Below the pieces are notes generated by a model. The model was not told the DNA's origin and searched no databases. It saw only the letters and a program-made list of their open reading frames with translations. A stretch of 64,000 nt of DNA, taken from positions 32,001 to 96,000 of IMG/VR virus record IMGVR_UViG_3300032245_000936; one strand, written 5' to 3'. The translations under genes and the position numbers were made by a program. The DNA is from a virus. This document shows positions 13,017 through 35,900 of the stretch, one piece after another (position 1 is the first letter of the stretch; every line of letters starts with the position of its first letter).

Positions 13017-13627
13017 ATAGAGTACTCCTTGAGACAAGGAATATCTCTGGCATCAGGGTATGCTTGCCATGCCCCAATCTTGTAGTCCTGCGTTAGCTGA
13101 TTCAACAGTAATATACCTTTGGCTGCTTCGTCGGGGCTCATGTTCATATGATATCCTAGAGTGATATGCTCCATCTCACTGGCAACTCCTAGCGAGCTAT
13201 CTCTACCATCATGTCGCATACGCTTTAGTGCTTGGTACATTGTATGATCGTCAAGCAGTATTGCTCCACCTTTACCAATTGGCAAACTTTTCTTCTGCTG
13301 GAAACTCAAGCACTGAACTTCGCCAGCACGATACATATTGGGTCTAAACCCCACAGCGTAGTCATACACGTTGGTATTGCCAATTTGATAACTGCCAACC
13401 CATTCTTTATATTCTAACCACACATTGTAGCCATAGTTAATCAGTGTCATGGGAACACTGATGTATGTGTGTGCAGGCAATACTATTTTGGCTTTGCGTT
13501 TCTTTTGATATTCCAATGCCAACAGTATTGCATTGGTACAGCGATCCACTGCCACAGCATAAGGAGCCCCTGTGTACTCGCATAAACGTTGTTCAAATAG
13601 TTCAATAAAATCGTTGTTGTTTTTCAT
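13013..13627 (-). CDS. DegT/DnrJ/StrS-family PLP sugar aminotransferase, short form
   Basis: FE..L..Y.G..YAVAV..CT.A, lSFq.kK.L.iG.GGAIL, GY...M....AA.G. Only 204 aa. Confidence 0.85.
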   Translation of the reverse strand: MKNNNDFIELFEQRLCEYTGAPYAVAVDRCTNAILLALEYQKKRKAKIVLPAHTYISVPMTLINYGYNVWLEYKEWVGSYQIGNTNVYDYAVGFRPNMYRAGEVQCLSFQQKKSLPIGKGGAILLDDHTMYQALKRMRHDGRDSSLGVASEMEHITLGYHMNMSPDEAAKGILLLNQLTQDYKIGAWQAYPDARDIPCLKEYSI

Positions 13628-14535
13628 ATGATGTAACGTAGGTCCTTTTTGTTGCAGAGGTCAACTACTGCTCTATCACAATACTTACACACATCATACT
13701 GCATGTTCAAAATTTTATCATAGTCCCCGTCCCAGGGTTTACCCTTGCTGGCTTCTAAAAATAGATAGCATGGATACACCTTGCCATGAATGTCCACTTG
13801 TTGACTTTTGTTTTCCCAGCTCATGCAATAGGCTTTGCCTTTCACTGGACTAGCATACTTGGCTCGAGCAAATTTGTCCATTTGTTCGTAGTCTTGTAGT
13901 TTATGCGGGTTTGGGCGCAGACGTTCAATACCAGAAGTGTCCACGTAGTTGCTTTTGTCTTTGAGCAAAAAGGTTTCAGTCCAATACACATGACTAAACT
14001 CGCTTACCATTTGTTGAAACTCAGGTCCATCAAAATCATCACTGTTGTAATGAAAGCGAATACATTGTGCATAATCGTTTTTGTTTGCGCCACGGAACGC
14101 ACGAGCATTGTCAAGTATGTTTTTTAATTTGGTGTTCTTGCGATACACCTCATGCAGTTCTTGTGTGCTACCGCAGATGCTAAAGTAAACTCTATCATCA
14201 TCTCTCATAAGGGTTGAAAGTTCTGCCCACCATTCAGGCTTGTGCGTATCTCCATTGGTACAAATTTCAATTCGTACATTACGTGCCTTGATGTATCGTA
14301 CAAGCTCAAAAAAATGTTTATACAATGTTGGCTCGCTTATGGTGCCAACAAGCCTGACCCATACTAGATCTGGAAATGTTTCCAACTGTGCAATTACGTC
14401 AGCAATAGGACGCACCAGGTTGTCTGGATAATGCTCTTGGTATACAGTATAGTTTCTGTAACATAACTGACATTGTGCATTACAGAGAGTGGTGAGCTCT
14501 AACTCAATGTCTTCAACTCGAGGCATGGTCAGCAT
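13624..14535 (-). CDS. radical SAM enzyme, trio A, C-terminal twitch-like Cys motif
   Basis: CNAQCQLC; GtiSEPT; TNG; C..G.VYPC..CKYC. Confidence 0.9.
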   Translation of the reverse strand: MLTMPRVEDIELELTTLCNAQCQLCYRNYTVYQEHYPDNLVRPIADVIAQLETFPDLVWVRLVGTISEPTLYKHFFELVRYIKARNVRIEICTNGDTHKPEWWAELSTLMRDDDRVYFSICGSTQELHEVYRKNTKLKNILDNARAFRGANKNDYAQCIRFHYNSDDFDGPEFQQMVSEFSHVYWTETFLLKDKSNYVDTSGIERLRPNPHKLQDYEQMDKFARAKYASPVKGKAYCMSWENKSQQVDIHGKVYPCYLFLEASKGKPWDGDYDKILNMQYDVCKYCDRAVVDLCNKKDLRYII

Positions 14536-15443
14536 ACAAAATCCAGTCCCATTTTTTCTATAAAAGTGCGTGTTCGTTTTTCACACAAGAAACAGTCAGG
14601 AAACTTGAATTTCAAGATGTCGCTATAATCAAAGTCTTCTTCTGCAAAGTAATCTTGTTCAAACTCTGCATGTACATAACAAGCACTTACTTGTCCATAC
14701 TGGTTGATATACACTTTCTTTTGTTCTAGACTGCGGCACTGAATATCATAGGTGTTGCCATCGTCTGGTAGTGGACGATTTGCAAACAGTTGTTTAATAG
14801 TCTTATCTCGCACTGCCATTGGTTTTACATTGATAGGGAATTTCTTTTCATAGTCATTCTTACGTCGGACCCCTTCAGTTTCAACATACATTATGTTAGA
14901 GAACTCGTTGATTATTTGTTGCATTTCAGCTGACTTTAAGTCTTCGCTATTATACTCAAATCGTATATGTTGCATCCAGTCGTTACCTAGACCATTTTTA
15001 CGCACTGCTCTTGCATGTTCAATAATTTGTTGTAGATCACTGCCCACACGATATATTTCATGTAGCTGTTGTGTGCTACCACAGATGGTAAATGCTACCA
15101 TACATTTTTTAGGTATGCGTTTACCCAGTGCCTCCCACCATTTTGCATCGTGAGTGTTGCCGTTGGTAAACAACTCGTAGTAAATATCACGACTGTTCAG
15201 GTAATCAATGAACTCATCAAAGTATTTGTACATTGTGGGCTCGCTTACTGCACCTGCAATAAAGAAACGTTTGAGTCCTGTATATTGATCTAATTGTTTA
15301 ATTACTTCCTCAATTGGTCGTATATTCTTGCCAACTAGATGTTGTGCGTGTGAATAATTGCGAGTGCATAACGGACACTCTAAATTGCACAGACCAGTCA
15401 GGTCCATTTCAATTTCTTCAATCTCAGACTTCTTAACTATCAT
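14529..15443 (-). CDS. radical SAM enzyme, trio A
   Basis: CNLECPLC; GavSEPT; TNGNTH; C..GQVSAC..CFLC. Start 15443 inferred from ATGA overlap. Confidence 0.9.
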   Translation of the reverse strand: MIVKKSEIEEIEMDLTGLCNLECPLCTRNYSHAQHLVGKNIRPIEEVIKQLDQYTGLKRFFIAGAVSEPTMYKYFDEFIDYLNSRDIYYELFTNGNTHDAKWWEALGKRIPKKCMVAFTICGSTQQLHEIYRVGSDLQQIIEHARAVRKNGLGNDWMQHIRFEYNSEDLKSAEMQQIINEFSNIMYVETEGVRRKNDYEKKFPINVKPMAVRDKTIKQLFANRPLPDDGNTYDIQCRSLEQKKVYINQYGQVSACYVHAEFEQDYFAEEDFDYSDILKFKFPDCFLCEKRTRTFIEKMGLDFVC

Positions 15444-16354
15444 ACCATTCGCTCCATACCGTTGCGTTCTAGTATACTGGTTGTCATGCTTTCGCACTCG
15501 TAACAGAAGTCAAATTCAAACTTGTGAATCTCAGAGTAGTCATTGTGATCAAACGGGGTCTTCTTGTACACCCGATACAAGAAGCAAGGAAACTCTTCTC
15601 CAAATTGGTTTATGCTCAAAAACTTTGTTTCGTAACTTTTGCAACGCATCTTACAACTTGCACCATTGGCATGTCTTTTTAAGATGCTGTTTTTTATTGT
15701 GTTATATTTTTCGCCGAGCTTGCCGTGCATCTTGATTGCTGTGTCTTCTTTGATAATTCCAAACCGCTCTTGGTATGGACTAGAATCAATCAACCATGGA
15801 TTGCTAAACTCTGCGATAATTGCCTTCATTGCATCAGACTCAAGATCTTTTGCATTATATTCAAATCGTATATGCTGGCACCAATCATTACACTTGCCGC
15901 TTTGACGAAATGCTGTTGCATGATCACGTATCTGTTGCAGACTACTGTTAACACGATATACTTCATGTAGCTCTTGTGTGCTACCACAGATAGTAAAGTA
16001 AACTCTATCTGTTGCCGCAAAGATATCACCCAATGCTTTCCACCACTCTGGCTTGTGCGTATTACCGTTTGTATACAGTTCAATTTTAATACCTCGGCCC
16101 ACTAGATATTTTACCAGTGGAACAAAGTCTTTGTACATGGTAGGTTCGCTAACGCTGCCGGCCATGCAAACAAATTTCAGGTTAGGAAATGTGTCAAGTT
16201 GGGTTATCCATTCATCAACAGGTCTGATATTCTTCTGCACTAGATGTTGTGCATTTTCATATGATCGTAGACAGAGAGGGCAGTCTAGGTTACAGGTGCC
16301 TGTAAGCTCTAGCTCAACTTCAAGTATTTCTGCTCTGTCTAATCCTAGTTTCAT
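15440..16354 (-). CDS. radical SAM enzyme, trio A
   Basis: CNLDCPLC; GsvSEPT; TNGNTH; C..GEEFPC..CYEC. Confidence 0.9.
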   Translation of the reverse strand: MKLGLDRAEILEVELELTGTCNLDCPLCLRSYENAQHLVQKNIRPVDEWITQLDTFPNLKFVCMAGSVSEPTMYKDFVPLVKYLVGRGIKIELYTNGNTHKPEWWKALGDIFAATDRVYFTICGSTQELHEVYRVNSSLQQIRDHATAFRQSGKCNDWCQHIRFEYNAKDLESDAMKAIIAEFSNPWLIDSSPYQERFGIIKEDTAIKMHGKLGEKYNTIKNSILKRHANGASCKMRCKSYETKFLSINQFGEEFPCFLYRVYKKTPFDHNDYSEIHKFEFDFCYECESMTTSILERNGMERMV

Positions 16355-16965
16355 AGATAAATTATGCTGTTAAAATCTTTTTCTTTAAAAACACGCTTGA
16401 TTGAGTCTGGCGTCATGCGTTTATGATACATGGTCAACATGCGATGCTTGTTACTATTACTTAACGTCGGACCTGATATACCCAATGGCATTGTAGCGGC
16501 AACCAAATTGAACTGTATGTCAGGGTACTTATCCAAAAATGTGCCCAAACGATCAAAGTTTAAATCTGTGACAATCAGTAGGTACTGCAAATTTATAGTA
16601 GCATCAATGATAATATCGTCATCTAAATTGATGTCTTCACTGCAATGATATAGTATGGTATCAAAACGAGGCAGTAAATCGCGATAGCGTTTGATAAACA
16701 ATCCGTTGGTATTGATACTAGGGCGGCAACCTTTTGCCTCCAATGCGTCTAGTATGTAAACAATGTCCTCACGTTTCATTGTACCAACTTCGCCACCGCT
16801 GAGTGTTACATTATAGCCAGGTATTATTTTATCTATTTTTTCTTTAACCTGATCCATGCCAAGTTTAGGACGATTGTGTGTGTCCACACAGCAATAGTTA
16901 CAATGCCATTGGCATACCCATGTAACCACAAGTTCAATTTCTTTTTCTTTTGCTTGTATTGCCAT
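16351..16965 (-). CDS. short radical SAM enzyme, trio B
   Basis: CQWHCNYC; SGGE; NTNG; YHCSE. Start 16965 inferred from TGATG overlap. Confidence 0.88.
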   Translation of the reverse strand: MAIQAKEKEIELVVTWVCQWHCNYCCVDTHNRPKLGMDQVKEKIDKIIPGYNVTLSGGEVGTMKREDIVYILDALEAKGCRPSINTNGLFIKRYRDLLPRFDTILYHCSEDINLDDDIIIDATINLQYLLIVTDLNFDRLGTFLDKYPDIQFNLVAATMPLGISGPTLSNSNKHRMLTMYHKRMTPDSIKRVFKEKDFNSIIYL

Positions 16966-17546
16966 CAGTGCCACCTTGCCACAACTGTAACAAACTCATC
17001 CAGGCTATATGGATGAACCTTGTGCCCGTGTTGGTTGAAGAAGTCCATCATTAGATTCAAACTAATCTTGCGTTGACTACGTACATCAGGCAACAACAAG
17101 AACTTGATATGAGGATACTTCTCTATCATTTTATGTATGCTTCCATCCAGGAAGTTTGTATTGGTTACTACCAATGCGTAGAACACATGATCTAATTCTA
17201 AATTAGGAAACTCTATGTCGTCGGGCAGATACTCCACGCAATGATAATGTATCTTTCCAAACTCATGTACCAATGGCATGTGTTGCCTGAAGAACAACCC
17301 GTTTGTCAACAGGTCAATTATACAGTTCTTGTCCTTGAGCAGTTTTATTATCAACTCCAACTGCTCACGTTTCAGTAACCCAGGCTCTCCTCCGCCAAAC
17401 GTGACCTCTGTGTCGGGTTCAATGGCCTTTACCCTGCGTAGTACTTCTTCAAAAGGCAGCTCTGGTTGGTTGTGTATATCTGCAACACAATAGTCACAGT
17501 GCCAGTTGCACTTGTTGGTTAAAGGCAATTCAATTTCTTTTTTCAT
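16965..17546 (-). CDS. short radical SAM enzyme, trio B
   Basis: CNWHCDYC; GGGEPG; LTNG; YHCVE. Start 17546 inferred from ATGA overlap. Confidence 0.88.
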   Translation of the reverse strand: MKKEIELPLTNKCNWHCDYCVADIHNQPELPFEEVLRRVKAIEPDTEVTFGGGEPGLLKREQLELIIKLLKDKNCIIDLLTNGLFFRQHMPLVHEFGKIHYHCVEYLPDDIEFPNLELDHVFYALVVTNTNFLDGSIHKMIEKYPHIKFLLLPDVRSQRKISLNLMMDFFNQHGHKVHPYSLDEFVTVVARWH

Positions 17547-18217
17547 CTCAATGCCTTTAACTTGCGGATATTGTTTACTTCCCAGCAACTGGTAATCAAA
17601 TGTAGATAGCTGTCAGGTGCAATACGATCTTTATACTGATTATATACTTTGAATCCATTGGCTCTGCTCAATCCTTTGCCAATTACATTATCTGCTCCAA
17701 ATACTAAAAATCTGATATCCGGATATTGATTGATATAAAAGTCCAAACGGTGCATGGTATCATCTGTGATTACCAATTGAAAATCAATTTTGGATATATC
17801 AACGTGCTCAGGAATCCAAATGTCATCATTGTCTAAATGTTCACTACAGTGATATAAAAAACTGTCTGGGATATGGCATAGATTTTTGTGTTTTTTAAAA
17901 AATGTTCCATTGGTGTTTACATTAACAAAGCATCCTTTATTCTTTAACTCTGTTAACACCCATTCCATAACAGCATGATCAATGAGCCCTGGCTCGCCAC
18001 CAGTTAATGCAACATCACTGTTTCCTGGTATTGCTTCAACTTTTTGTTTTATGTCATGATAGGTTACATCAGCTCTGTTGTGTGTGTCCTCAGAGCAGTA
18101 GTCGCAGAACCAATTACACTTATAGGTTAGGTACAAGGTATAACTGTTAGCTCCATCAAGTCCTCCTTGAAAGAATTCATAGTTGTCGTGCTTTACTCTT
18201 GGCAATTGATTGCTCAT
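17543..18217 (-). CDS. short radical SAM enzyme, trio B
   Basis: CNWFCDYC; TGGEPG; NTNG; YHCSE. Confidence 0.88.
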   Translation of the reverse strand: MSNQLPRVKHDNYEFFQGGLDGANSYTLYLTYKCNWFCDYCSEDTHNRADVTYHDIKQKVEAIPGNSDVALTGGEPGLIDHAVMEWVLTELKNKGCFVNVNTNGTFFKKHKNLCHIPDSFLYHCSEHLDNDDIWIPEHVDISKIDFQLVITDDTMHRLDFYINQYPDIRFLVFGADNVIGKGLSRANGFKVYNQYKDRIAPDSYLHLITSCWEVNNIRKLKALR

Positions 18218-19266
18218 TTGTAAAACCCTTTTCTATAAAAATTTACCTGTGTGATTTTTTCACCCGGAGCCGGAGTCAGTACCACATCTTTGATCTGTTT
18301 CTCAACACCATCACAGATGTAATAATGTTTACACTCTAAGCAGTCCTTGGTTTTATAGTATGTGCGGTTGCGTTTGAATGCGGCTGCATCATACATGGCC
18401 TTGAGTGGATCAGCGCGATATGTTTCAGGATCGATGTCACCATTGTATACCGCAATATTCCAATCATATACATCATAGATATGTTGATAATAATTGCAAA
18501 CGTATTGTTCATAGCCTGTCATGAAGCAATAAGGTGTGTACCTTACGTTGATTTTTTTAACTTGATCTTTTAACAAATCAATGGCCTGATGTACATAAGG
18601 TGTAACTTCAGCGTAGTTGATAGTGTCTTGTTTGCCAGCATCGTCCCAATAGTTGAGAGTGAGAAAGTTCACTTCAAAGGGTTGTAGTTCTTGCATCAGT
18701 GCCACAAACTTTGTGGGCAAGGATTTGTAGTTCCGGTGAGTCACTGTGCAATTAACACGAACCAAAATGCCTAACTCATGTGCATTGTGTATGGCCTGGA
18801 CAATATTTTCAAAGCCCTTGCGATGACCTACTAATATGTTGTGAGACTCTTTGTCATAACCATGTACACTAAATAGGATTTCTTCTAGTCCGTGTTCTTT
18901 TGATTTTGCTAAGAATTCTTTATTGGCAAATTTGTACCCATTGCTCAGTGTACTGATTTTCAATCCATGCCCGCGGCAGTAGTCTAGTATATCAAACCAT
19001 TGCTTGTGAATACTGCTTTCTCCACCACTAAGGTCTACTTCTTTAATTCCACAAGCAATCAAATAATCAATGCGTTCTTTTATTTTTTCAAACTCAGTTA
19101 CTTCATCAAGCTGTGTTTTGTAATAGCAGAACTCACAACGATAGTTGCAATGTGTGCCAGTGTCTAGTTTGGCACGATTGCACATAGGCTCGTTACTATC
19201 AATCTGTAACTTATTGCTCAGCTCGTTGTATAGTCTCACGTTCAATCTCTTGGTATTGTTGGTCAA
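18214..19266 (-). CDS. radical SAM enzyme with C-terminal PYC...CxxCxxxxxCdG cluster motif (start uncertain)
   Basis: CNYRCEFC; SGGES; SNG; FSVHG....H; CLECKHYYICDG. Confidence 0.9.
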   Translation of the reverse strand: MTNNTKRLNVRLYNELSNKLQIDSNEPMCNRAKLDTGTHCNYRCEFCYYKTQLDEVTEFEKIKERIDYLIACGIKEVDLSGGESSIHKQWFDILDYCRGHGLKISTLSNGYKFANKEFLAKSKEHGLEEILFSVHGYDKESHNILVGHRKGFENIVQAIHNAHELGILVRVNCTVTHRNYKSLPTKFVALMQELQPFEVNFLTLNYWDDAGKQDTINYAEVTPYVHQAIDLLKDQVKKINVRYTPYCFMTGYEQYVCNYYQHIYDVYDWNIAVYNGDIDPETYRADPLKAMYDAAAFKRNRTYYKTKDCLECKHYYICDGVEKQIKDVVLTPAPGEKITQVNFYRKGFYK

Positions 19267-20056
19267 TTGGCTCTGGATCAGCCTGATATTTCTTTTTACT
19301 TGCCACCATCAATTTAAATGATGACACCGATTCTTTATAACAAGTCCTACTAAAACTACTGCAATGATTTAAACATATACTTTGGCTATCAAAGAACTTG
19401 TATCTAATAGGGTGCTCTAATGCTTCCTTTAGTGACACTGTGTTTAGATTTGCAAAGGCCAACTTATCATTATAAGGAACATTGTCTTTTACGAACTTAC
19501 AAAACATCACATCACCATTGGCCAATATCTTGGGCATACTGTGAAAATGGCATTTGAGTTTAGAGTTGAATTCTTCGTTTATTTTTGTGCCGGTGTAATT
19601 GAAAACATAGTTTCGATCGCGGCGCTCTAGGTTGTAACGTATACCGGCTGCATCAAGTTCATCAATTCGACGATGCACAATATCAAATAAATTTTTATCC
19701 ATGCCGGTTAGCTCTTTGAACTTTTCTGGAGTGTCACCATAATAACTGATACAGAATTTAATATTGGTCATACCAATTTTTTTCAGCTTCTCTACATTCA
19801 CTGCGGTTACATTGGTAAACACAATGGTGTATTTCATATGCGTGTTTACAAAATCAAGCATTTCATAAATGTCAGGATGCAGGAATGGTTCGCCTTTTGC
19901 AGGAATCAAATCAACTTCTGTTATGCCCATTGCCTTTGCTTCTAAAATAATTCTTTTGAATAATTCTAGATCCATATACTGCGGCTCGGTGATATCTTTG
20001 GCTTTGCAAAAATAGCATTTGAAATTGCAATACTCAATGATTTCTACCACTATCAT
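19211..20056 (-). CDS. radical SAM enzyme with twitch/SPASM-like C-terminus
   Basis: CNFKCYFC; kGEPFLHP; C......I.aNGDV.FC...anL...sL.E...CLNHC. Confidence 0.88.
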   Translation of the reverse strand: MIVVEIIEYCNFKCYFCKAKDITEPQYMDLELFKRIILEAKAMGITEVDLIPAKGEPFLHPDIYEMLDFVNTHMKYTIVFTNVTAVNVEKLKKIGMTNIKFCISYYGDTPEKFKELTGMDKNLFDIVHRRIDELDAAGIRYNLERRDRNYVFNYTGTKINEEFNSKLKCHFHSMPKILANGDVMFCKFVKDNVPYNDKLAFANLNTVSLKEALEHPIRYKFFDSQSICLNHCSSFSRTCYKESVSSFKLMVASKKKYQADPEPIDQQYQEIERETIQRAEQ

Positions 20057-20946
20057 ATTATGCCTTTAAGGATGTCCACTATCTCATCATTGGGCTTTAG
20101 ATGGATGCTGTCAAACTTATAGTCAATATCCCAGCGTCTCCAATACAGTCCTAGATCTTCTGCCCAGTAATCTATATCATGATAAATTACCTCTTTGCTG
20201 TAGTATTTACATTCGGCTATGAAACGAGGCGAACAATCCCACTTTCTTTCAACTGGAGTGTACACATACGTGGTAAACTGTTCAAACAGATTGTCTACTG
20301 GTGGAAGTATAAACGTAATTCCAGTCACTGGAGTTGGTTGATTTTCTGCATTGGTAATTGCAACAATAGGTTTATTGTATCTTGCAAAGTCTGCCCAATC
20401 TTTTATATTGCGGCAGTTTTTGGTGGCATACAGCAATATTTGATTTTTGCTTTCGCCAATGGTTTTTAGTCGACTAAAGAGTATTTTCTTTTTATAGTTG
20501 ATTCCGTTGGTTTTGACAGGATCATACACACGGTCGTCTTGTAAGATGTAGACGTTGTGTTTATCATTGTCTTTGATCTCTTTGTTTCCGCAAGCAAAGA
20601 AGATGATGTTGTCAAATAACAGCGTGTACTCTTGTGCATTTACAATACCTCCGTCTGTAAATAAAATATTACGGCCACGTAACAAACTAGGGCGATTGCC
20701 GAACACAGTATGTGCGCGAATATCGGCAATTTCATGATCTGTAAAATCATACTTGTTTCTAATACTTCTCTCAACGGTTTGCCAATCAATATCTTCTCCT
20801 AAAAAAATTCCCACTTTAAAATGATCTTTGAGTACGTGATAGTAGTCAAATACTTCAAAGGTATGTCCACACACGCCGTGATTGTTGTTGCTCCAGGTAT
20901 AGCTGAGCCAGAGATCGTACGAAGGATCTAATTGTATTATTTTCAT
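20053..20946 (-). CDS. hypothetical protein, possible GT-B glycosyltransferase-like; paralog of 20943..21731
   Basis: N-terminal G...f..f.Y and C-terminal D.spR.i.Ec.YY.K.V, which resembles the GT-B E...g.pV motif. Confidence 0.55.
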   Translation of the reverse strand: MKIIQLDPSYDLWLSYTWSNNNHGVCGHTFEVFDYYHVLKDHFKVGIFLGEDIDWQTVERSIRNKYDFTDHEIADIRAHTVFGNRPSLLRGRNILFTDGGIVNAQEYTLLFDNIIFFACGNKEIKDNDKHNVYILQDDRVYDPVKTNGINYKKKILFSRLKTIGESKNQILLYATKNCRNIKDWADFARYNKPIVAITNAENQPTPVTGITFILPPVDNLFEQFTTYVYTPVERKWDCSPRFIAECKYYSKEVIYHDIDYWAEDLGLYWRRWDIDYKFDSIHLKPNDEIVDILKGII

Positions 20947-21731
20947 CTGAGCATTGCCTTTACCATTACATCATCTTGTGTCAGTGTGTAATTAGTCAGT
21001 CCGTTTTGTTTGATATCATTGTAGCGTAGCATGATTGAATCTACACCTGTATAGACTTCTTCTACTGTGACTTGTTTATTGTAATAAAATCCCTCAGGGA
21101 TGATTCGATTGTTGCTGTCTCGTACCACATGTATATAATGCACTGCATCAATCAATTCAAACAAGTTGCCTACTCCAGTGTGTTGCTTCTTTAGTATAAT
21201 TGGTCGATTGAACTGTTTCTTTAATCGTTCATATTCAAATCGAATAAACTGTGGGTCCAGACAACTCACAAACACGCCAGGTGCTGAAGTTGTTAGCTGT
21301 GGGAATATTTCAAAGTTTAATTTTAGATAGCAGAACACATCGTAGTATTGAAAATCATAGCTTCCGTAGTAGGTTACAGATCTTTGATTGCGGTAGCGGA
21401 ACCATTCGTGTTCTTCGTTGCTAAAACAATGTACTTCGTTGGTGAAAAACTCTCGGCATTGACGAAATGTATCAACATCCAGTACCAGAGTTCTGTCTAG
21501 ATCAAGTTGATAGAGTTCGGTGAGTTTGATTGGAACAATGCCGTCTGTGAAAATTTGATATTTTTGAGAAAGTATGTTTGCGACGAGGCGAAGATCGCCT
21601 TCTGTTATGCCTATAACATAAAATTGAACATCAGTATATTTTTGTAAAAACTTAAAATATTCAAAGCAGTAAAACAGAGTTCCGTTGATCTTGTTATGTG
21701 GTTTGTGTTTGTACACCACTCCAAGTTTCAT
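20943..21731 (-). CDS. hypothetical protein, possible GT-B glycosyltransferase-like; paralog of 20053..20946
   Basis: NGTLFYCFEY and DSNNRIIPEGFYYNKQV align with the paralog. Confidence 0.55.
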   Translation of the reverse strand: MKLGVVYKHKPHNKINGTLFYCFEYFKFLQKYTDVQFYVIGITEGDLRLVANILSQKYQIFTDGIVPIKLTELYQLDLDRTLVLDVDTFRQCREFFTNEVHCFSNEEHEWFRYRNQRSVTYYGSYDFQYYDVFCYLKLNFEIFPQLTTSAPGVFVSCLDPQFIRFEYERLKKQFNRPIILKKQHTGVGNLFELIDAVHYIHVVRDSNNRIIPEGFYYNKQVTVEEVYTGVDSIMLRYNDIKQNGLTNYTLTQDDVMVKAMLR

Positions 21732-21732
21732 A

Positions 21733-22347
21733 TTAAAATCTTGCGTAGAAGTCTTCTAAAAAGTTTTGTTCTATTGTTTTAACTTCTTCTTGTGTGTTAG
21801 ACAATTTAATTGCAGTGCGGAATGCACTGAACTTTCTTTCTAGCTGTGCCACAGATTCAATTTCATCTTTGTAGTTTAGATAATCTTCTAACTTGGTAAT
21901 CAGTTTCTCGTCGCCGGTTTCAAGTATTTCCAAATACTTTTCTTCACGGTTGTCATTGGTGATGAAATATCCAGCATTGGCTAGATCGTTGTTGAGCATG
22001 ATAAATCCATACATGGTCAGCCCAGCAATCTTGGAAAGCTCTGGTGTAATCAACATGCGAATTTTTATCATGGCTGCATTTCTTGCTTCCTGGAGAGGGT
22101 CTGTTTCCATAAGGTCAATGACCTCAAACTCCCCGGGCAATACTTCCGTGGTTCTGAGAGTTTTACTGATATGAATAGTTTTGTTTTCAACCACTGCTTT
22201 TTTCATCATCTCAGCACTCATGTAACTGAGTTTGAGATATTTTTCTTGGTGGTCCGCCGGGGCATCTAATGTGTTGTTGACCACATTAGTTACCCGGTAG
22301 TAAGTGCCGCAGTCAATGACGTGGGCCAGATCGTAAAGCATTGTCAT
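21733..22347 (-). CDS. hypothetical protein, possible fibre assembly chaperone
   Basis: ATG at 22347 with GAGGA SD. Directly follows the fibre-like gene; helical C-terminus (aIkls.tqEEvk.I) recalls tail-fibre-associated chaperones. Confidence 0.5.
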   Translation of the reverse strand: MTMLYDLAHVIDCGTYYRVTNVVNNTLDAPADHQEKYLKLSYMSAEMMKKAVVENKTIHISKTLRTTEVLPGEFEVIDLMETDPLQEARNAAMIKIRMLITPELSKIAGLTMYGFIMLNNDLANAGYFITNDNREEKYLEILETGDEKLITKLEDYLNYKDEIESVAQLERKFSAFRTAIKLSNTQEEVKTIEQNFLEDFYARF

Positions 22348-22373
22348 AATTGATTCCTCATTGTATACCAAAT

Positions 22374-23042
22374 TCAGATTGGTAAGAGTTTATAGTTCAC
22401 CATGTAAAATCCGCGAGCATCCTTCTTTAATGCTTGTTCATGTTTGGTTCCAACTAGTTCTTGAGCAATAACGCCAACATACTCTGTGGCTTTGTCCCAG
22501 ATATATGTCCAAGAATAGATATTCAGACCATTGCGTGTTTCAATGAACTTGATGTTTTCTTTGAGACGTTGATCACTGTAGTTACAACCGCAGTCGTTGT
22601 GACAACTACAAACGTTGTTACAGGAGCAGTCTGAATTACAAATACAATCTTGGCGAATTACATCGTAACGTGCTTTGAGCTCCGTCCAATGAGTAATCTG
22701 TACCTTTGTGCCTGCGGCCAGCGAAGCCGGAACTGTGGTCAGATATGCTACCATAGTACGAAGATTGTTGTATTGTCCTGACGTGGCTGTGGTTGCGCCC
22801 GGTGAAAATGCAGTTCCCTCATACAATGTGTATGGGCCGTAATCGCCATGAGAATCATAACGAGCAATCTCGTCACGAATACTGCTACGTAATAAATTTA
22901 TATCTGCGGCTGTTACCTTACCACCTTGAGCCCATTCATTACTCATGGTAATGGCTCTGTTAGTAGAGCAGCCAGGACGGTGATTTGAACAGGATGATGT
23001 GCCTGTTCCGTGGTCAGTGCAGTGTGAACCAGAGCATGCCAT
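22374..23042 (-). CDS. Cys-rich fibre-like protein with C-terminal peptidase S74 intramolecular chaperone; candidate radical-SAM substrate
   Basis: N-terminal 4-Cys/His segment; CICNSD-CSCNNV-CSCHND-CGCNY repeat; then SDQRLKENI...GVIAQEL...VNY, the S74 signature. Confidence 0.85.
   Translation of the reverse strand: MACSGSHCTDHGTGTSSCSNHRPGCSTNRAITMSNEWAQGGKVTAADINLLRSSIRDEIARYDSHGDYGPYTLYEGTAFSPGATTATSGQYNNLRTMVAYLTTVPASLAAGTKVQITHWTELKARYDVIRQDCICNSDCSCNNVCSCHNDCGCNYSDQRLKENIKFIETRNGLNIYSWTYIWDKATEYVGVIAQELVGTKHEQALKKDARGFYMVNYKLLPI
22578..22646 (-). repeat. (CxCxxx)4 coding repeat, residues 133-155
   Basis: Eight Cys with 6-residue periodicity, ending immediately before the Ser-Asp of the S74 cleavage motif. 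Confidence 0.9.
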
Positions 23043-23046
23043 TTGG

Positions 23047-24222
23047 TTAAGTTCCTTCCATTTCTAATTGTTTTGCTTTTTCAGTAACAACTTGTAATTC
23101 GTTGTCAAGGTAGGATTGAACGGTTCTATCAATTTCACCAAATGCCTTAAAAAAGCCACACATGTTGTTTACCCAACGATCAGTCCAACGATCGAAGTAA
23201 TCTTCTTTTTTGCTATTGTCTAAACTGGACACTGGGCAAATCATACAAGTCGTAGCAACACAGCCTTTGCAAATATCTGAAACTGTACGAATTGGAATGC
23301 TGTATGTTTCACTCATCTTGGCTACGTCGTCAACAAAACTGTCTTGGTCAATACTACTGCCTCTCATGAGTTCTTTGTTTGGACTGTACAAAGATCCATG
23401 GCAAGCATAGCTTTGTCCATCAACGTCAATGGCGTGCATGTTGGCACCAGACGCACAGTGTACTTTTGTGTCGCCGCCGTCAAACCATGACATCAAATGA
23501 TGATTGTGCTCACGATAGAATTTGATTTCTTCTCGCGCAACCATTAACATTTCTTTTCTAAAATCTTCAATCATCTTAGGCAAGTCGCCAGATGGAATCT
23601 CATTCACATAATCAATTGTAGGAGCATAGGTCACTGTGATATTTCTACCAATGCTGTTTAGACGTTGGTGTAAATCACGGAAGTCTAACCAAGTCTTGTA
23701 AAGACCAGTCATGCTCTTGAGAGGAATGGTGCTTTTCAATGAGATGTTAATACCTTTACGTGCAAAGTATTCAATGTTCTCTACCACTGTGGAGCTGGTT
23801 GGTTTACCAGTGTGAGTTAAACGGAATTTGTCATTGATGTCTTTTCCGTCGTAACTGATTTGAATCTGTAGTTTGCTAGTATCTACTGCATCAAAAATAT
23901 CTTCTAGGCGCTTGCGGTTATAACCATTGGTGTAGATATGAAATTCAATCTCAGGATACTCATTGAATTCATTCATTACATCAATAATCATTTTACCATT
24001 TAGTGTTGGCTCACCACCCCAGAAGCTGATGTTCAAGCTGTCATATTTGTTGCGGAACCAAGGTGACTTTCTTAGTTCGTGAATACGCTGTTTAACTAGA
24101 TCTAGTTTGTCGTCTAGACGTTGTTTGTTGGTCTTCACACCCTCAAAGCAATAGGTGCAACCCAAGTTGCACAAAGCAGTGGTGGTGATTTCGATAGTAA
24201 ATTGTCCTAAACGTTCATTCAT
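23047..24222 (-). CDS. radical SAM/SPASM maturase (anSME/peptide-maturase-like)
   Basis: CNLGCTYC; FWGGEPTL; YTNG; ISYDG; SPASM CASG...DG..YAC...CKGC....CMICP...C. Confidence 0.93.
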   Translation of the reverse strand: MNERLGQFTIEITTTALCNLGCTYCFEGVKTNKQRLDDKLDLVKQRIHELRKSPWFRNKYDSLNISFWGGEPTLNGKMIIDVMNEFNEYPEIEFHIYTNGYNRKRLEDIFDAVDTSKLQIQISYDGKDINDKFRLTHTGKPTSSTVVENIEYFARKGINISLKSTIPLKSMTGLYKTWLDFRDLHQRLNSIGRNITVTYAPTIDYVNEIPSGDLPKMIEDFRKEMLMVAREEIKFYREHNHHLMSWFDGGDTKVHCASGANMHAIDVDGQSYACHGSLYSPNKELMRGSSIDQDSFVDDVAKMSETYSIPIRTVSDICKGCVATTCMICPVSSLDNSKKEDYFDRWTDRWVNNMCGFFKAFGEIDRTVQSYLDNELQVVTEKAKQLEMEGT

Positions 24223-24452
24223 TGTGTGTCTTTCCCCATGGTCATAATTTCATCTAAAATGCTCATCATACGATCATCTGAAACTTTTTCTTCTTCAGGT
24301 TGAATAATCAACGCCATTTCAGCTGCCATGTGTAAAAGTTTATCGGATTCGTCCTGAAATTCTTGCACATTTGACAAGTGTTTGGATGCTTCCAGTAGAT
24401 GATTGCTGGCATAAAACAGCGCCTTGTTCATCTTTTTAATGCTAGTTGACAT
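24219..24452 (-). CDS. small helical hypothetical protein between the two SPASM enzymes
   Basis: 77 aa from ATG at 24452; overlaps both neighbours. Confidence 0.7.
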   Translation of the reverse strand: MSTSIKKMNKALFYASNHLLEASKHLSNVQEFQDESDKLLHMAAEMALIIQPEEEKVSDDRMMSILDEIMTMGKDTQ

Positions 24453-25449
24453 TCTCAATTTCCTCTTTAAGTTGTTGTATAAAGTACGGATTGCTACCTA
24501 GCTCTTGTGACATCCTACTTACTTGCCTGTAAGTGTATTTATATATGCTACAGAGCTCCACGATAGGACCTTTGTTTTTGATTTGCTCAAATAAACAGCC
24601 TTTTTCGCAGTAGTTTTTTACTTCGCAGGATTGACACTCGGGCATTTGTGCATATTTGGGTATTTCTGCAATCAGCTCGGGTGCTTTGGTAAAACGTGTG
24701 CAGGGCACAATCTTGTTGTCGCTGAACATGAATATGTCTGTTCCTGCGCCGCAGTTGTGTTTTTCTAATCCTTTAACTTTGTAATTTAAAAAATGGCGAA
24801 GATAAAATGTGATGAAAAACGGCATCTGCTCATGCGGATTTGCGATGTACCAATCAAACAGTTCTTCGATACCTGCTTTGAGTTTTTCCACACTAGCAGA
24901 ATCCCATACATCAACGTCACGTACCAGCGTAAGCTCTGGATTCACTCCAAAGTGCTTTTTTATAAACAAATGATTTTCCAATAGGTTATAGCAACCCTTG
25001 TAAATCATTGTGTGCATACGTAGGTTGGGTATCTGTTTGAATAGATCTGCTTTTTCTAAAAATCTATGTGAGGTTTTGCGACCGTTTAACTGTAGCCTAT
25101 ATTTGTCTTGCCACAGTCCGTCAAAACTCACAGATGTTTCAATTTGTTCTTTAACTAGGTACTCCAGTATTTCATCTGTTAACAACAACCCATTCGTGGG
25201 CATGAATAATTTTACATTGCCATCTTCACGTACACCATCTACTATACGCTGAATCAAATCAAATTGCAACAGGGGCTCACCCCCAAAAAAATCAATCTTG
25301 ATACGTTCAGTCGGGTGTTGTTCCCGCATCTTTCGAAACTCATCAAGATACATGTCTACATCAATGGCTTTTTTGCTCCATTTATCCACGTCACAGTAGG
25401 TGCAATTTAGATTGCACTTTTCTGAAAGGACCACAAGCAAGGTTTTCAT
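24442..25449 (-). CDS. radical SAM/SPASM maturase (anSME/peptide-maturase-like)
   Basis: CNLNCTYC; FFGGEPLL; TNGLLL; VSFDG; SPASM CGAG...VPC...CQSC....CEKGC...LC. Confidence 0.93.
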   Translation of the reverse strand: MKTLLVVLSEKCNLNCTYCDVDKWSKKAIDVDMYLDEFRKMREQHPTERIKIDFFGGEPLLQFDLIQRIVDGVREDGNVKLFMPTNGLLLTDEILEYLVKEQIETSVSFDGLWQDKYRLQLNGRKTSHRFLEKADLFKQIPNLRMHTMIYKGCYNLLENHLFIKKHFGVNPELTLVRDVDVWDSASVEKLKAGIEELFDWYIANPHEQMPFFITFYLRHFLNYKVKGLEKHNCGAGTDIFMFSDNKIVPCTRFTKAPELIAEIPKYAQMPECQSCEVKNYCEKGCLFEQIKNKGPIVELCSIYKYTYRQVSRMSQELGSNPYFIQQLKEEIENVN

Positions 25450-26183
25450 TTTCTATAGATCTCGTTTAATTTTAATACAGTATTTAAGAGCTCTATGTCA
25501 AACATATCTGCTAGTGCTTTTGTATCTTTAGGCAAGCACGGGCCACCAAAGCCTCGCTGGCCATCTGGGCCCGGAACTTGAAAATGATGTGTGCCCATCC
25601 ATGGCTGCATTTTTAACACATCAACGATACTGTTGTAGTCAGCGCCCAGCTCATTGGCAACATCATATATGGCATTCATGTATGTTACTTTGAGTGCATA
25701 AAAACTGTTCATTGTGTATTTGGCCAATGCCGCAGTTTTTATGTCTGTGAATTTTACTGTGCTCATGTTCACATCAGAGTATTTGCGATACAGATCTGCC
25801 ACACGCTGAGTTTTGTCTGTGTCACCACCTAGTAGTACAAAAGGCGGGTTAATAAAATCATCTGCGGCTGTTGCACGGCTTAAAAACTCGGGGTTGTAAA
25901 CAATGTCGTATTGTTCTAGCACATGTGGAAGTGCTGTGCTTTTTACAACAACAATTCCTTGGTAATTGGTACTTTTAATACGTTCCAATGTTTCACGTAG
26001 TATTTGATAGTTGCTATGATCAGTAGGAGTAGGCACACATACAAAAACAGCGTCAGGATTTTCCCCACACATATATTCTATGCTGAGATCGTTGTATGCA
26101 GGGTCAGAGAGCATCACTGCGGTTTTACTAAACCCAGTTGCCACCGCCTTGCCAACCATTCCGTAACCAATTATTCCGATCAT
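25446..26183 (-). CDS. ugd: UDP-glucose/GDP-mannose 6-dehydrogenase family, short form
   Basis: IGIIGYGMVG, FVCVPTP, KST, NPEFL, K...N...a.Kv, GFGGPCLPKD. Lacks the C-terminal domain. Confidence 0.88.
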   Translation of the reverse strand: MIGIIGYGMVGKAVATGFSKTAVMLSDPAYNDLSIEYMCGENPDAVFVCVPTPTDHSNYQILRETLERIKSTNYQGIVVVKSTALPHVLEQYDIVYNPEFLSRATAADDFINPPFVLLGGDTDKTQRVADLYRKYSDVNMSTVKFTDIKTAALAKYTMNSFYALKVTYMNAIYDVANELGADYNSIVDVLKMQPWMGTHHFQVPGPDGQRGFGGPCLPKDTKALADMFDIELLNTVLKLNEIYRK

Positions 26184-31830: not shown

Positions 31831-32976
31831 CTAAGATGTAAGAGTACGTATACCCAGGCTGGTAATTAAGTTTCCTGCTGTGATATTGCCTGAAATTGTG
31901 GCGCTGGGTGTATCGCAAAAACTTCTGGTAAGCCCGGTTAGAGTACTATTTGACTCCCAGGCTTTTTCGTATAAAATAACTTCTTCTCTAACCCTAACAG
32001 ACCCTTTGATATCATAGGGCGTAAAGTGCAGAACTGCTCCCGACGTTATTGTTAAATTACTGCGTATTGGGTTCAAGCGAATTGTATTGTTATTGGTAAA
32101 AATCCTATCAACAATGGTGTTGCTACTGGTCGGAATAACATCTGTGTCTGCTCTAGCACCAATTGTAATGCCCAACACTGTGGTCACTGGCACAATCAAT
32201 ACATTAGATACCAGCAGATTTGCTGTGACCGTGGCATTTGCGTAAACTTCGCTGGGAGAAGGAAACAATGCAATATTGCTCACAGTGATTTCTGCATTTG
32301 CTCCTGCTATTAAATTTGCTGTGATTGTGTCGTGTTTGGGCAATCTTGGATCAAGCCCAATGTCGTATGCCAGACTCTCGCGCAAAAATTGCGCTGGTTT
32401 GCTGGCTGCGGCCCAAAGGCCGTTGCCTTGAACTAGTGTTTGAAACTGCAAAGTATCACCAATGGTGAGTGCAGGAATATTGCCTGATACAGTAATTGGG
32501 GTTGTATAAGTTTGCGCCCAGGCCACTACATTTGACGACCCTTCTACAATACTAGAATCTCTAATTACCACATTGCCGCCTGTGTAATATCCTGATCCAC
32601 CAGATGTTACTGCCACTGCACGTACCTGCGATGATGATACAAAAACTTGTCCAAATGTAGCAGGCACTTGTGCATTACCCGATTCGTCACGCACTGAAAT
32701 AGTCAAAATATTTTGTATACTGTTAACCTGTGTGAACGAACCAATTATAGCAACGTTGCTATTTGCGTAAGAATAAATTGGTTTAACAGGATTAACTCCA
32801 GACACCTTGGCTGCTGTGCCTCGGGTACCACCTCTAGTAGTGTCCAAAATCAAGTGTCCACTTTCAACAAGTGATTGGTCTTGTATCCATAACACCGACG
32901 AGAACACGGTGTTTTCGGCACTACCATATGAAGTAGTTGAAGCAAAATTAAGTAAGGTTGTGTTGGCTACAATCAT
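31831..32976 (-). CDS. putative structural protein (beta-rich)
   Basis: T/S/V/N-rich with a GGSGY motif and an E.I.Y..Ltgl.R motif, both also in the giant protein; located in the structural operon. Confidence 0.65.
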   Translation of the reverse strand: MIVANTTLLNFASTTSYGSAENTVFSSVLWIQDQSLVESGHLILDTTRGGTRGTAAKVSGVNPVKPIYSYANSNVAIIGSFTQVNSIQNILTISVRDESGNAQVPATFGQVFVSSSQVRAVAVTSGGSGYYTGGNVVIRDSSIVEGSSNVVAWAQTYTTPITVSGNIPALTIGDTLQFQTLVQGNGLWAAASKPAQFLRESLAYDIGLDPRLPKHDTITANLIAGANAEITVSNIALFPSPSEVYANATVTANLLVSNVLIVPVTTVLGITIGARADTDVIPTSSNTIVDRIFTNNNTIRLNPIRSNLTITSGAVLHFTPYDIKGSVRVREEVILYEKAWESNSTLTGLTRSFCDTPSATISGNITAGNLITSLGIRTLTS

Positions 32977-32977
32977 G

Positions 32978-35900
32978 TTATTGTCCTAAGTCCAGCCATA
33001 TACTACCCTGTGGTACATGTGTGGTTGTTGCTACTCGATACACAGCAGTATTTTGGATGCTTGCATTACCAATATTGTTGTACACAGAGTAATCATTTGA
33101 GATTGTGAGTACTGTATCAGTTTCAAACTGTTGTACTGGGCTTGCATCAGTAATTATGCTTCCGGCCACATGCACCAAAGGAATACTTGTTCGTTGTGCT
33201 CCACGACGTATGTCTGTTAGCACCCCACGGTTAAGGTCAATTCCAAAATAGTTAATCTTTTCGCCATTGACCCAAATACTGCCTGGCTGATTGATAGCTG
33301 CCGCTGGTGCTGGCAATCTAGCAATGTCAGCTACTGAAATCTCAGTGTCTTCATAGGATAGGTTGGCAGTCAACACTGTGGTATTTGCATCTGGCAATCT
33401 GTAATAGACCGTTGACAGTTTATAATCAGTGAAGATCTTGAAGGCTGTTACATTACCATAGTCAATGTTGCCATTGGTTACATTTGCAGTAAACACATTC
33501 ATTTGTAAACTGTCAATCACCTGACCAGGTACCAGCTCTTCAGGAGCATGACTACTATACTTGTCAATAAATTTACCGCCGTCAACAATGATATCTTCAG
33601 GACGAATACCTAATAGGTTATCAGTGTATTCACTGCTGATAATAGTATCTAAACTCAATGGATCAGTATTGGTTTGTAAAAACTCCTGCCCTTTTACCAA
33701 GCCGCCTGGATAACTTGCACCCGGAATCTTATCAGGAATATCTCTATACAAATGATCTAGTACGCCAGCAATGTTGTATTGGGCAGTACTCACAATTTTT
33801 GTTCCAGACTGTATACCAAACACAGTGTCAGGGGACAACACATAATCAATTTTTAGACCGTCTGTGGTCTCAAATATCAATGTGGTTGTGTTATTACGCA
33901 CATCCTGTGTTGTTGTTTTTTGTATTTTTGTACCTGTTGCATCAAAGAATGTCAATGATGTTCCGGCCGGAATAGCAACACTGGTGTCAGTTGACGGTTT
34001 ATTTGGCAGAGACAACGGCTTGTTCAACTGCAATGTTGTTTTGTTTACAACAATTGATTCGTAGTTGATGTTGTTGTCGCGTCCAGATCCACGTGCAAAC
34101 TTCCAGGTGAACTTGGCAAAACGTCCAATTCCGTTAACCGTTGCAGCAAGAGGAATACCAGTTCCGCTGATAGACCAGTTAGCAGTTACCTTTTCGTATC
34201 CATTTACATATACCACTGAGTCGCCTTTAGCGGCTGTGCGACTCACTGTTAGAGTTTTGGTTGTTGCTGTGTCAATGTCTGTAAATGTCAATACTGTGCC
34301 TACTGGAATTTCTGCAGTAAACAAATACTCTGCAATAAAAGATCCTAGCACTGTGGTTGTAATATTTGCAGAAGCAAAACTAATTGTGATGTTCCAACTG
34401 CCAGCAATTAACTCAACGTTTGTAATAATGGAATCAGTTGGTAACCCAGCACCGTTGAGAGTCATACCTCTAATAGGTGCGCCAATTACATCAGTTACTG
34501 GTATAGAAATTATCAGCGAAGTTAATCCAGTACCACCGGTCCAGTGTGCAGATGAATTTCTAGTGTACGCATACCTATTAGGATTTATATTGCCTAGCTC
34601 AATGTATACTTCGTCATTGTATCCTGGGTAGCCCCAGATCACAGTAGATTTATTACCTACTACAATAAACTTTTCGCCGTCCCAGCTAATGTCAGTGAAA
34701 TCGTACTTGCGTACATTTTCTGCGCTCAGCGGAAGAACAAAGTTATCAGAATCAAATTCACGGAAGTTTTTAAACACATTGATACCGTAGTTCATCACAA
34801 CCTTACCAATGGTATCTGCACCTGTGTCTGCATTGCCTAGTTGAACCTGTAGCGGACTATCTAGTTTGTTCCAGATCAAAGTGCCACCGGATCCAATTGC
34901 AATAATCCACTGTCCTACATCATCACTGATCGCAATGGCATTGATTTGCTCTCCACTATAACCATCGCTGTCGCCAGCAACAGACTTAGGCACATTCATT
35001 GGAATCCATGGGTAGTTAAAATCAGTGCCTTTGCCGCTATCATAGTTATAGCTTAGTTTGTATCCTTGTTGTAGATCATCAAGTCTGTTATAACTGGTGA
35101 TGTACATGTTTCCATTTATGCCGCCAATTACCACAAAACCAACTTGCATTGGTTTCCCAAACCCATTTAGTGTAAAACTACCAGAACCTTCAAGATTTGC
35201 GTTATAGTATGCAAAATGTACCATTTGTGCCGGACGTGTTGTACCCACTGTGCCAGCTGCCGCAATCGCAGTATTTTCCGTAAAGCCCAACTGTATCACA
35301 GTGGTGCCTGGTGTTGTTGAACTATCAACGTTGATCACGCCGTGATTTGTTGGCACGTACGGACTGATCATTGTCATACCAAATTCAATAGTACCAGAAA
35401 TATCCGCAGTTGGAATTCTTACAATCAACGTGCTACCAGTCACTGCTGCCCAGGTTGCTGATGCGCGAAGTGTTTTAGCGCGAATAAACAAAGACAAATC
35501 GCCAAAACTTCTAGAGTCCACTGCTAAGAAATTAGCCGGAGTATTGTATACCTTAGGCTGTGCTTTGGCTGCGTACCAAGTGTTTTCAAACGGCGCACTG
35601 GCATTAGTATCTGTTGGGTTCAACAGAATAGTATCACTGTTACCCACAGTTAAAATATAACTGCCTTGTGTGCTAGTAAATGCTGTGACGCCAGTTAAGT
35701 CAACTGCTTGTGCGGCTTCGTTCAGTACCAAACCATTCACAGCATCTAGCGAAGGACTGTATCTAAATGTTATAATTTGATCAATGTTCCAATTAACAGC
35801 ATCCAAGCTGGTTAGAACATATCCACGGTTACCAATAGCCACCCATGTTGTGCCGTTATAATACACCACGTCTCGCAAGTTCACTGCTTGATCATTCAAT

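Follow-up and report, generated by a model that had tools for sequence, protein, structure and literature searches.

Radical S-adenosylmethionine (SAM) enzymes with a SPASM domain are known to staple cysteines of small peptides, and the case of a whole protein was first described in 2026: in Methanococcus voltae, the SPASM enzyme CrpC (TIGR04463) puts ranthionine thioethers on CrpA, a 28.8-kDa Cys-repeat protein with C-X-X-Q/D motifs that is also suspected by its authors to bind metal (PMC13692751). Peptidase S74 domains are known from another setting: those of endoNF (S911/K916) and MyRF (S587/K592) hold their Ser and Lys five residues apart and cut just before the Ser, in the trimer only (PMC8326128). 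Finally, the 11–12 radical SAM genes of Campylobacter phages (Firehammervirus) were termed ‘highly unusual’ in 2010 (PMC2853527). Here we analyse a viral gene found in a stretch of 64,000 nucleotides (hereafter the window; positions 32,001 to 96,000 of the IMG/VR record IMGVR_UViG_3300032245_000936, which has 112,657 bases and is 32% complete according to CheckV). It is an open reading frame (ORF) of 222 aa plus stop with an ATG start, located on the minus strand (22374..23042), and it encodes a Cys-repeat/S74 protein, below the Cys protein. We propose that this protein is the substrate of a multi-radical-SAM maturation cassette common to T4-like giant phages and some Bdellovibrionota, that it is stapled and relieved of its S74 domain, and that it is a probable particle component. 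We would give this overall reading a probability of about 0.55, and the exact chemistry a lower one.

The Cys protein, whose features all lie on the minus strand, has a 23-residue core of the form (CxCNxx)3-CxCNY, CICNSDCSCNNVCSCHNDCGCNY (residues 133–155; 22578..22646), a putative modification or metal site. The preliminary description of this DNA, made from its letters alone, had placed a CxC core exactly at an S74 cleavage site, and indeed the core abuts Ser156, with the SDQRLKENI... beginning of the S74 domain (residues 156–222; 22377..22577) directly adjoining. The second Cys/His cluster that it had announced at the N-terminus is equally real: the box MACSGSHCTDHGTGTSSCSNHRPGC (residues 1–30; 22953..23042) contains C3, H7, C8, H11, C18, H21 and C25, and positions C18, R22, C25 and N28 are invariant in a 27-sequence alignment and conserved in at least 90% of 110 sequences. 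Between box and core lies a predicted three-helix domain with three loop-helix repeats (residues 31–132; 22647..22952). In an AlphaFold2 model built on a 110-sequence alignment (mean predicted local distance difference test score, pLDDT, 81.7), its helices 45–63, 88–99 and 116–131 reach a pLDDT of about 90, while the N-terminal box scores low and core residues 136–152 fall below 50 in the monomer. Comparison of the model with the Protein Data Bank (PDB) by Foldseek gave no match at E≤0.001, and VIA-align found generic helical-bundle matches for the middle domain (best Z 6.6) and no convincing structural relative. Similarly, the family profile retrieved nothing meaningful from PDB sequences, and megablast of the region retrieved no match from GenBank phages.

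The C-terminal part is well identified. Pfam Peptidase_S74 (PF13884) matches residues 156–196 at 30 bits (E 6.5e-7), above its curated cut-off of 22 bits, and at 32.5 bits in the genome search. Residues 156–222 are modelled with pLDDT >90 and resemble viral ‘intramolecular chaperone auto-processing’/endosialidase chaperone domains of the BFVD database, themselves predicted rather than solved structures, with a root-mean-square deviation of 1.1–2.6 Å over 65–75 residues and E down to 1e-5. S156 and K161 of the SDQRLK motif keep the S+5 spacing, so the dyad is intact. Judging from this motif, Ser156 would act as nucleophile and Lys161 as base, with a predicted cut at Tyr155|Ser156, between bases 22578 and 22577. 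Y155, S156, D157, L160 and K161 are invariant in the 110 aligned homologues. The ORF length after Ser156 implies a C-terminal fragment of 67 aa for this predicted cut, the size that had been anticipated.

Natural variation around this position is informative. Among 224 family proteins, 161 carry a full S74 domain, 33 end with a 12-residue stub, SDxRLKxxIxYx followed by the stop codon, and 16 end three residues or fewer from the Tyr, as ...CGC[N/H]Y; some of 12 ‘other’ proteins also carry S74. S74-less ends are ...CGCHY in Halobacteriovorax and ...CGCNY in the viral contigs L035 and L037, and S74-less or stub forms are present both in phage contigs and in predatory Bdellovibrionota chromosomes. 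A tree built from the sequence before the predicted cut in 218 proteins implies 19–23 changes of the S74 state overall, of which at least about 8 fall on well-supported branches. The domain can also be split: in Peredibacter (L040:8001-8875) and in the viral contig L036 (8001-8800), the Cys gene stops 12 residues into S74, Ser and Lys being kept, with the ends SDKRLKKEIQYC and SDKRLKKDIIYM, respectively, before the stop codon; the 33 stub-type database homologues stop at the same position. The remainder of S74 forms the next ORF in another frame (Pfam 27 bits; S74 model positions 6/16–64). It is preceded in L036 by AAGGAG, a Shine-Dalgarno-like sequence 7 bases before a GTG start, and in L040 by a purine-rich stretch before a TTG start. 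Given these start signals, programmed frameshifting is a less likely explanation of the stub forms than a split gene, and the split S74 may be a naturally trans-acting intramolecular chaperone.

By these sequences, S74 is best described as an optional, removable C-terminal cap, because natural homologues end at or near the predicted cut or keep the stub next to a separate remainder. From truncations at the predicted cut we conclude that the functional product would end ...CxC[N/H]Y. The S+5 spacing of the dyad, together with homologues that stop at the Tyr or no more than three residues from it, or that carry the 12-residue stub, also supports the earlier suggestion that S74 behaves as a built-in removable follower. 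As full, split and absent S74 forms all end at the same Tyr, the family illustrates the ways in which such a self-cleaving chaperone can be acquired, divided or lost.

The second line of evidence is gene linkage. Directly upstream of the Cys gene lies rSAM2, a radical SAM/SPASM gene (23047..24222, 391 aa) whose product is the presumed maturase, to judge from motifs, NCBIfam matches and synteny. Further upstream is rSAM1 (24442..25449, 335 aa), recognised as radical SAM/SPASM by NCBIfam and a C-terminal Cys motif, and the next conserved gene downstream of the Cys gene encodes a 212-aa partner (21733..22371). Of the 22 related loci (11 + 11) that we compared, 18 are IMG/VR contigs, the longest of 278 kb, and 4 come from bacterial genomes (GTDB); identities are about 27–78%. 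The rSAM2, Cys and 212-aa genes occur together in all 22, the 212-aa gene being directly adjacent in most, and rSAM1 is also present in 21. No Cys gene was found without a SPASM radical SAM gene just upstream (0/27 loci). A sample of 301 Bdellovibrionota genomes contains exactly six with the Cys protein (E≤1e-49), and the rSAM2 orthologue (E≤1e-156) is found in these six and in no others, with 20 to 53 bases between the two genes in every case; as the six may be close kin, they count as one strong observation and not as six independent ones. The link between SPASM enzymes and the Cys protein, already proposed from the window, thus holds as strict adjacency and co-occurrence. Since the Cys gene always stands beside radical SAM genes of the cysteine-stapling type, it is probable that the phage cross-links a protein of its own, which would probably be a particle protein.

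This linkage bears on an ordinary explanation, in which the Cys protein is a small S74 fibre-type protein whose disulfides form after lysis to give a compact mini-domain, the radical SAM neighbours reflecting nothing more than shared regulation. In its favour, phage fibres frequently carry S74 domains, and insect antifreeze proteins offer a precedent in their disulfide-braced beta-helices of 12-residue repeats. However, the linkage is kept in phage and in bacterial genomes at identities of 27–78%, with differing flanks, and also in members without any S74, so that we consider this explanation very unlikely. The preliminary description had also seen virion-fibre motifs in the middle of the protein. 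The three G..v.....n.L motifs do exist, but each opens a predicted helix, and the domain is a helical bundle with no recognised fibre repeat. Overall, what that description observed was confirmed, while its interpretation was supported in part: the follower and the SPASM link stand, the fibre motifs do not.

We then considered what the two SPASM enzymes might do. The rSAM2 protein carries the CX3CX2C motif (C18/C22/C25) and seven SPASM cysteines (C256, C274, C318, C321, C326, C329 and C355), none of which varies among 9 sequences, and a C-terminal CX2CX5CX3C is found in the translation of rSAM1. Their best NCBIfam matches are both PapB (NF047865), near full length, with 89 bits for rSAM2 and 101 bits for rSAM1, followed for rSAM1 by HxsB at 83 bits; rSAM2 also matches TIGR04463, the CrpC family, at 50 bits. 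Further matches of the pair include QhpD (TIGR03906), the SCIFF maturase, the CXXX-repeat family and TIGR04463, that is, Cys-thioether maturases. PapB/QhpD-type enzymes join Cys sulfur to side-chain carbons of Asp or Glu.

The core offers possible acceptors at a fixed distance. Its pattern, C.C...C.C...C.C...C.C, has a single match in the window translated in six frames, and 200 base shuffles produced no match at all. A word-indexed protein search gave 147 homologues of the Cys protein (40–62% identity) and an exhaustive profile search 82 cluster representatives at E≤1e-30. In the 110 aligned homologues, seven core Cys never vary, and the eighth is found in at least 90%; with a mean top-residue frequency of 0.87, against 0.49 for the middle domain and 0.67 for S74, the core is the most conserved segment of a protein that has more than 200 homologues. 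The repeat number is fixed at four, except in the subclade P0140/P0146 with its CxCNCNY heptads. A word-based search found no long protein (≥390 aa) with core and S74; the exhaustive search found one 749-aa form, P0258, with internal repeats. The residues three positions after the core Cys are N136, D138, N142, V144, H148, D150, N154 and S156, thus N or D for 5/8 Cys, and of these N136, D138, N142 and N154 never change or are kept in at least 90% of the sequences.

The same core could be read as a metal or Fe-S site without covalent modification, where CxC pairs of associated chains border a narrow core and hold Zn, Fe, Cu or an Fe-S cluster and the radical SAM enzymes act on another target, a sugar or a protein. 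The CxC spacing resembles metallothionein, the Cys hardly vary in place or number, which would suit a defined site, and the AlphaFold2 monomer cannot place the segment. A comparable arrangement, with iron held by HxH motifs, exists in T4 gp37 and at the spike tips of P2 and phi92. Ugd and aminotransferase-like genes are present in the operon of the Cys gene, and metal binding is suspected for CrpA, as mentioned above. However, such a site would leave the strict adjacency and co-occurrence with SPASM enzymes without a reason, conserved Asn/Asp at Cys+3 are not needed for thiolate ligation, and C141 or C133 is missing in some clades. We thus hold a metal site in place of stapling to be unlikely; metal binding and stapling are not mutually exclusive and could coexist.

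By analogy with these enzyme families, enzymatic Cys-to-Asn/Asp stapling, followed or accompanied by removal of S74, is probably the most likely mechanism, its exact chemistry being less sure. In the first step, rSAM1 and rSAM2 would act on the Cys-rich segments and most likely introduce thioethers of the ranthionine type from Cys to the Asn/Asp three residues downstream. S74 would then help the chains to associate and would cut itself off at Tyr155|Ser156 by means of Ser156/Lys161. The expected product has 155 residues with a C-terminal stapled, possibly metal-binding Cys core, and S74-less orthologues would reach the same end simply by translation. In the phage, this product would probably belong to the baseplate/fibre apparatus as a minor constituent of the particle.

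The only experimental hint of such a location comes by analogy from Campylobacter phages. The nearest GenBank phage homologues of rSAM2 are found in the CP220 group (27% identity over 93%). Four genes upstream of the rSAM2 homologue, CP220 gp140 (L013:2152-3756) carries seven CTCDCNY heptads and six more CxC motifs. These 534-aa proteins of CP220 and IBB_35, with seven CTC[D/N]CNY heptads, are annotated merely as a 21-bp ‘repetitive region x.1-x.6’. The alignment between the family member P0146 and CP220 gp140 (E 6e-14) takes in the helix before the repeats. The IBB_35 orthologue (L044:2100-3704, 534 aa) has a computed mass of 60,317 Da, and the mass spectrometry table of purified IBB_35 virions lists ‘gene 3-9, hypothetical protein’ at 60,318 Da with 2.6% coverage (PMC3322345 supplement); we matched the two by these masses. 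This would place a distant relative of the Cys protein, detected at low coverage, in a virion.

The relatives and the cassette also bear on a more classical scheme, that of a precursor of a ribosomally synthesised and post-translationally modified peptide (RiPP) or cofactor. Here a 132-residue leader would precede a 23-residue core modified by many of the ten radical SAM enzymes and released like PQQ or mycofactocin, with a reactive free C-terminal Tyr. The leader-core-follower layout, the many tailoring radical SAM genes and a core as invariant as in cofactor-type RiPPs agree with this scheme, as do the invariant terminal Tyr, exposed by a stop codon or by the predicted S74 cut, and the bacterial chromosomal copies outside any virion context. 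Nevertheless, no cassette gene of the window has a peptidase or transporter match in Pfam, NCBIfam or PHROGs, several genes being without assignment, and no leader cleavage motif is recognisable. Moreover, the would-be leader is a conserved domain, folded with confidence by AlphaFold2, and related repeats sit within the 534-aa virion protein (CP220, IBB_35) and within the 749-aa P0258. A classical precursor therefore appears improbable to us.

The bacterial copies are of interest in their own right. The whole cassette is found in chromosomes of Halobacteriovorax, Peredibacter and a Bdellovibrionales metagenome-assembled genome (L038, L039, L040, L041), its proteins being up to about 58% identical to those of the phages, and its presence in just 6 of the 301 sampled genomes of the phylum suggests transfer between predatory bacteria and giant phages. 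Upstream neighbours of the bacterial cassettes are shikimate-pathway or cytochrome bc1 genes and thus indicate no obvious prophage on that side.

Several observations weigh against maturation of the Cys protein as a stapled particle component. Since the bacterial copies lie among housekeeping genes, a virion role cannot be general. The virion detection is at 2.6% coverage, and the family profile aligns with the CP220/IBB_35 protein at an hhalign probability of 35%, the homology being distant. The scores of rSAM1 and rSAM2 stay far below those set for curated families: 101 and 89 versus 340 bits for PapB, 50 versus 525 for TIGR04463 and 60–79 versus 453 for QhpD. No clear RiPP recognition element (PqqD-like) was recognised: both enzymes start at once with the radical SAM motif, the 79-aa protein resembles a helical hairpin, and the small beta/alpha domain of the 212-aa protein is of uncertain kinship. 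An invariant rather than variable core also fits a metal site, and with eight further radical SAM genes and sugar enzymes in the cassette, some or all of them could in reality act on something else. Finally, a C-terminal coiled coil, the trimerisation driver in MyRF, was not seen, the AlphaFold2 model having no helix of ≥4 residues after residue 147. S74 is present here in a minimal 67-residue form; relatives at L011 and L034 and the protein P0155 carry a coiled-coil-like extension. Without the coiled coil of its own, the trimer, which would bring together 24 Cys in the exposed tip proposed earlier, is a state that we infer.

A more specific picture, in which phages and a few predatory bacteria make a stapled, possibly metal-loaded particle module from the Cys-repeat end, with S74 or its split trans version as optional follower, is tentative and in our opinion rather doubtful in this full form. 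If true, it would be the first case of a virion protein cross-linked by enzymes in the manner of a RiPP, phages would chemically harden or functionalise their own protein with RiPP machinery, and the radical SAM clusters (11–12 genes) of Campylobacter phages would receive an explanation and a first function. As phages of the CP220 type are cultured and their own Cys-repeat protein has been seen in virions, the idea is directly testable.

The surroundings in the window are those of a T4-like myovirus: a gp6-like wedge gene (phrog_10646, E 7e-287), a gp5-like hub gene, gp25, tail-fibre genes and a 6226-aa ORF are present, and the cassette lies directly downstream of the baseplate/tail-fibre genes. 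The 6226-aa ORF (32978-51658, minus strand) separates the gp6-like baseplate wedge gene from the tail-fibre genes. The cassette genes run co-directionally in the order Ugd, rSAM1, 79-aa, rSAM2, Cys gene, 212-aa, 262-aa, 297-aa, rSAM3, rSAM4, three radical SAM genes of ~207–224 aa and three of ~300 aa, so that ten radical SAM genes are found within 12 kb. The Ugd-like protein (25446-26183, minus strand, 245 aa) covers positions 75–294 of a 413-position nucleotide-sugar dehydrogenase model and is without the usual ends; this size is kept in related viral loci. Between the SPASM genes, the 79-aa conserved helical protein (24219..24458) is found in 13 of the 22 loci (36–63% identity); it has no family match, and comparisons gave helical-hairpin leads, none above chance.

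The 212-aa protein is modelled (pLDDT 84.6) as a small beta/alpha domain with a helical bundle. No convincing fold relative emerged, but matches to the Hsp70/DnaK substrate-binding domain, weak (E>0.01) though repeated, are a lead that it may serve as a substrate-holding helper analogous to CrpB. One distant viral locus differs by the insertion, between the Cys and 212-aa genes, of an internally repetitive ORF of 448 aa (L011:8387-9733), and in L012 this place is taken by rSAM4. The rest of the cassette (13624..21731, minus strand), assigned by Pfam Radical_SAM, NCBIfam and synteny, consists of the 262-aa and 297-aa proteins, rSAM3, rSAM4 and the six smaller radical SAM genes. For the 297-aa protein, a 0.90 feature-similarity lead to glycosyltransferases was obtained and nothing else. 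The six genes at 13624-18217 form two tandem triplets of paralogues, with copy number differing among related loci; the ~300-aa proteins match best TIGR04317, a tungsten-cofactor oxidoreductase maturase, and those of 207–224 aa show weak HxsC, NrdG and QueE-like matches.

Literature searches combining phage with ranthipeptide/SPASM and tail fibre returned no description of such a system, and CrpA/CrpC is the closest experimentally studied one. As there, a SPASM gene adjoins the gene of a substrate of protein size whose C-terminal part has Cys at regular intervals, with acceptors at Cys+3 (C-X-X-Q/D in CrpA, C-X-X-N/D here). The 50-bit match of rSAM2 to the CrpC family (TIGR04463) is a further common point, as is a second small conserved partner (CrpB there, the 212-aa protein here). 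In contrast, the substrates share no detectable homology, CrpC has an N-terminal recognition element and none is seen here, and the repeat is of 17 residues ten times in CrpA and of 6 residues four times in the Cys protein. Here there are also two SPASM enzymes, up to eight more radical SAM enzymes, an S74 follower and a phage/Bdellovibrionota range, with a predicted chemistry. Similarly, PapA/PapB (freyrasin) and QhpC/QhpD (quinohemoprotein amine dehydrogenase gamma subunit) resemble the locus in that PapB is the best match of both SPASM neighbours and QhpD also matches. They differ by score (89–101 versus 340 bits) and motif (CX2N/D here, CX3D there), and also by the predicted product, a 155-residue folded protein here, with a follower removed by predicted self-cleavage and not by a separate protease.

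With the S74 domains of endosialidase tailspikes, the T5 L-shaped fibre and MyRF, the Cys protein shares an HMM (hidden Markov model) match above cut-off, the SDxRLK motif, Ser and Lys five apart and a matching predicted fold. In contrast to them it is very small, has a Cys repeat before the cut and not the known triple beta-helix, and carries a 67-aa minimal S74 without coiled coil that is evolutionarily optional and sometimes reduced to a stub plus separate gene. CP220 gp140 and IBB_35 gene 3-9 possess CxCxCNY heptads identical to those of P0140/P0146, a preceding helix that aligns and an rSAM2 homologue nearby in the baseplate module; unlike the Cys protein they have 534 aa, seven heptads and six scattered CxC motifs, no S74 and no N-terminal box, and the radical SAM gene is four genes away. 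Thus, SPASM maturation of a Cys-repeat protein is already known in kind, and from the genes compared here the novelty of the present system would reside in its self-cleaving, optional follower and in its phage structural context.

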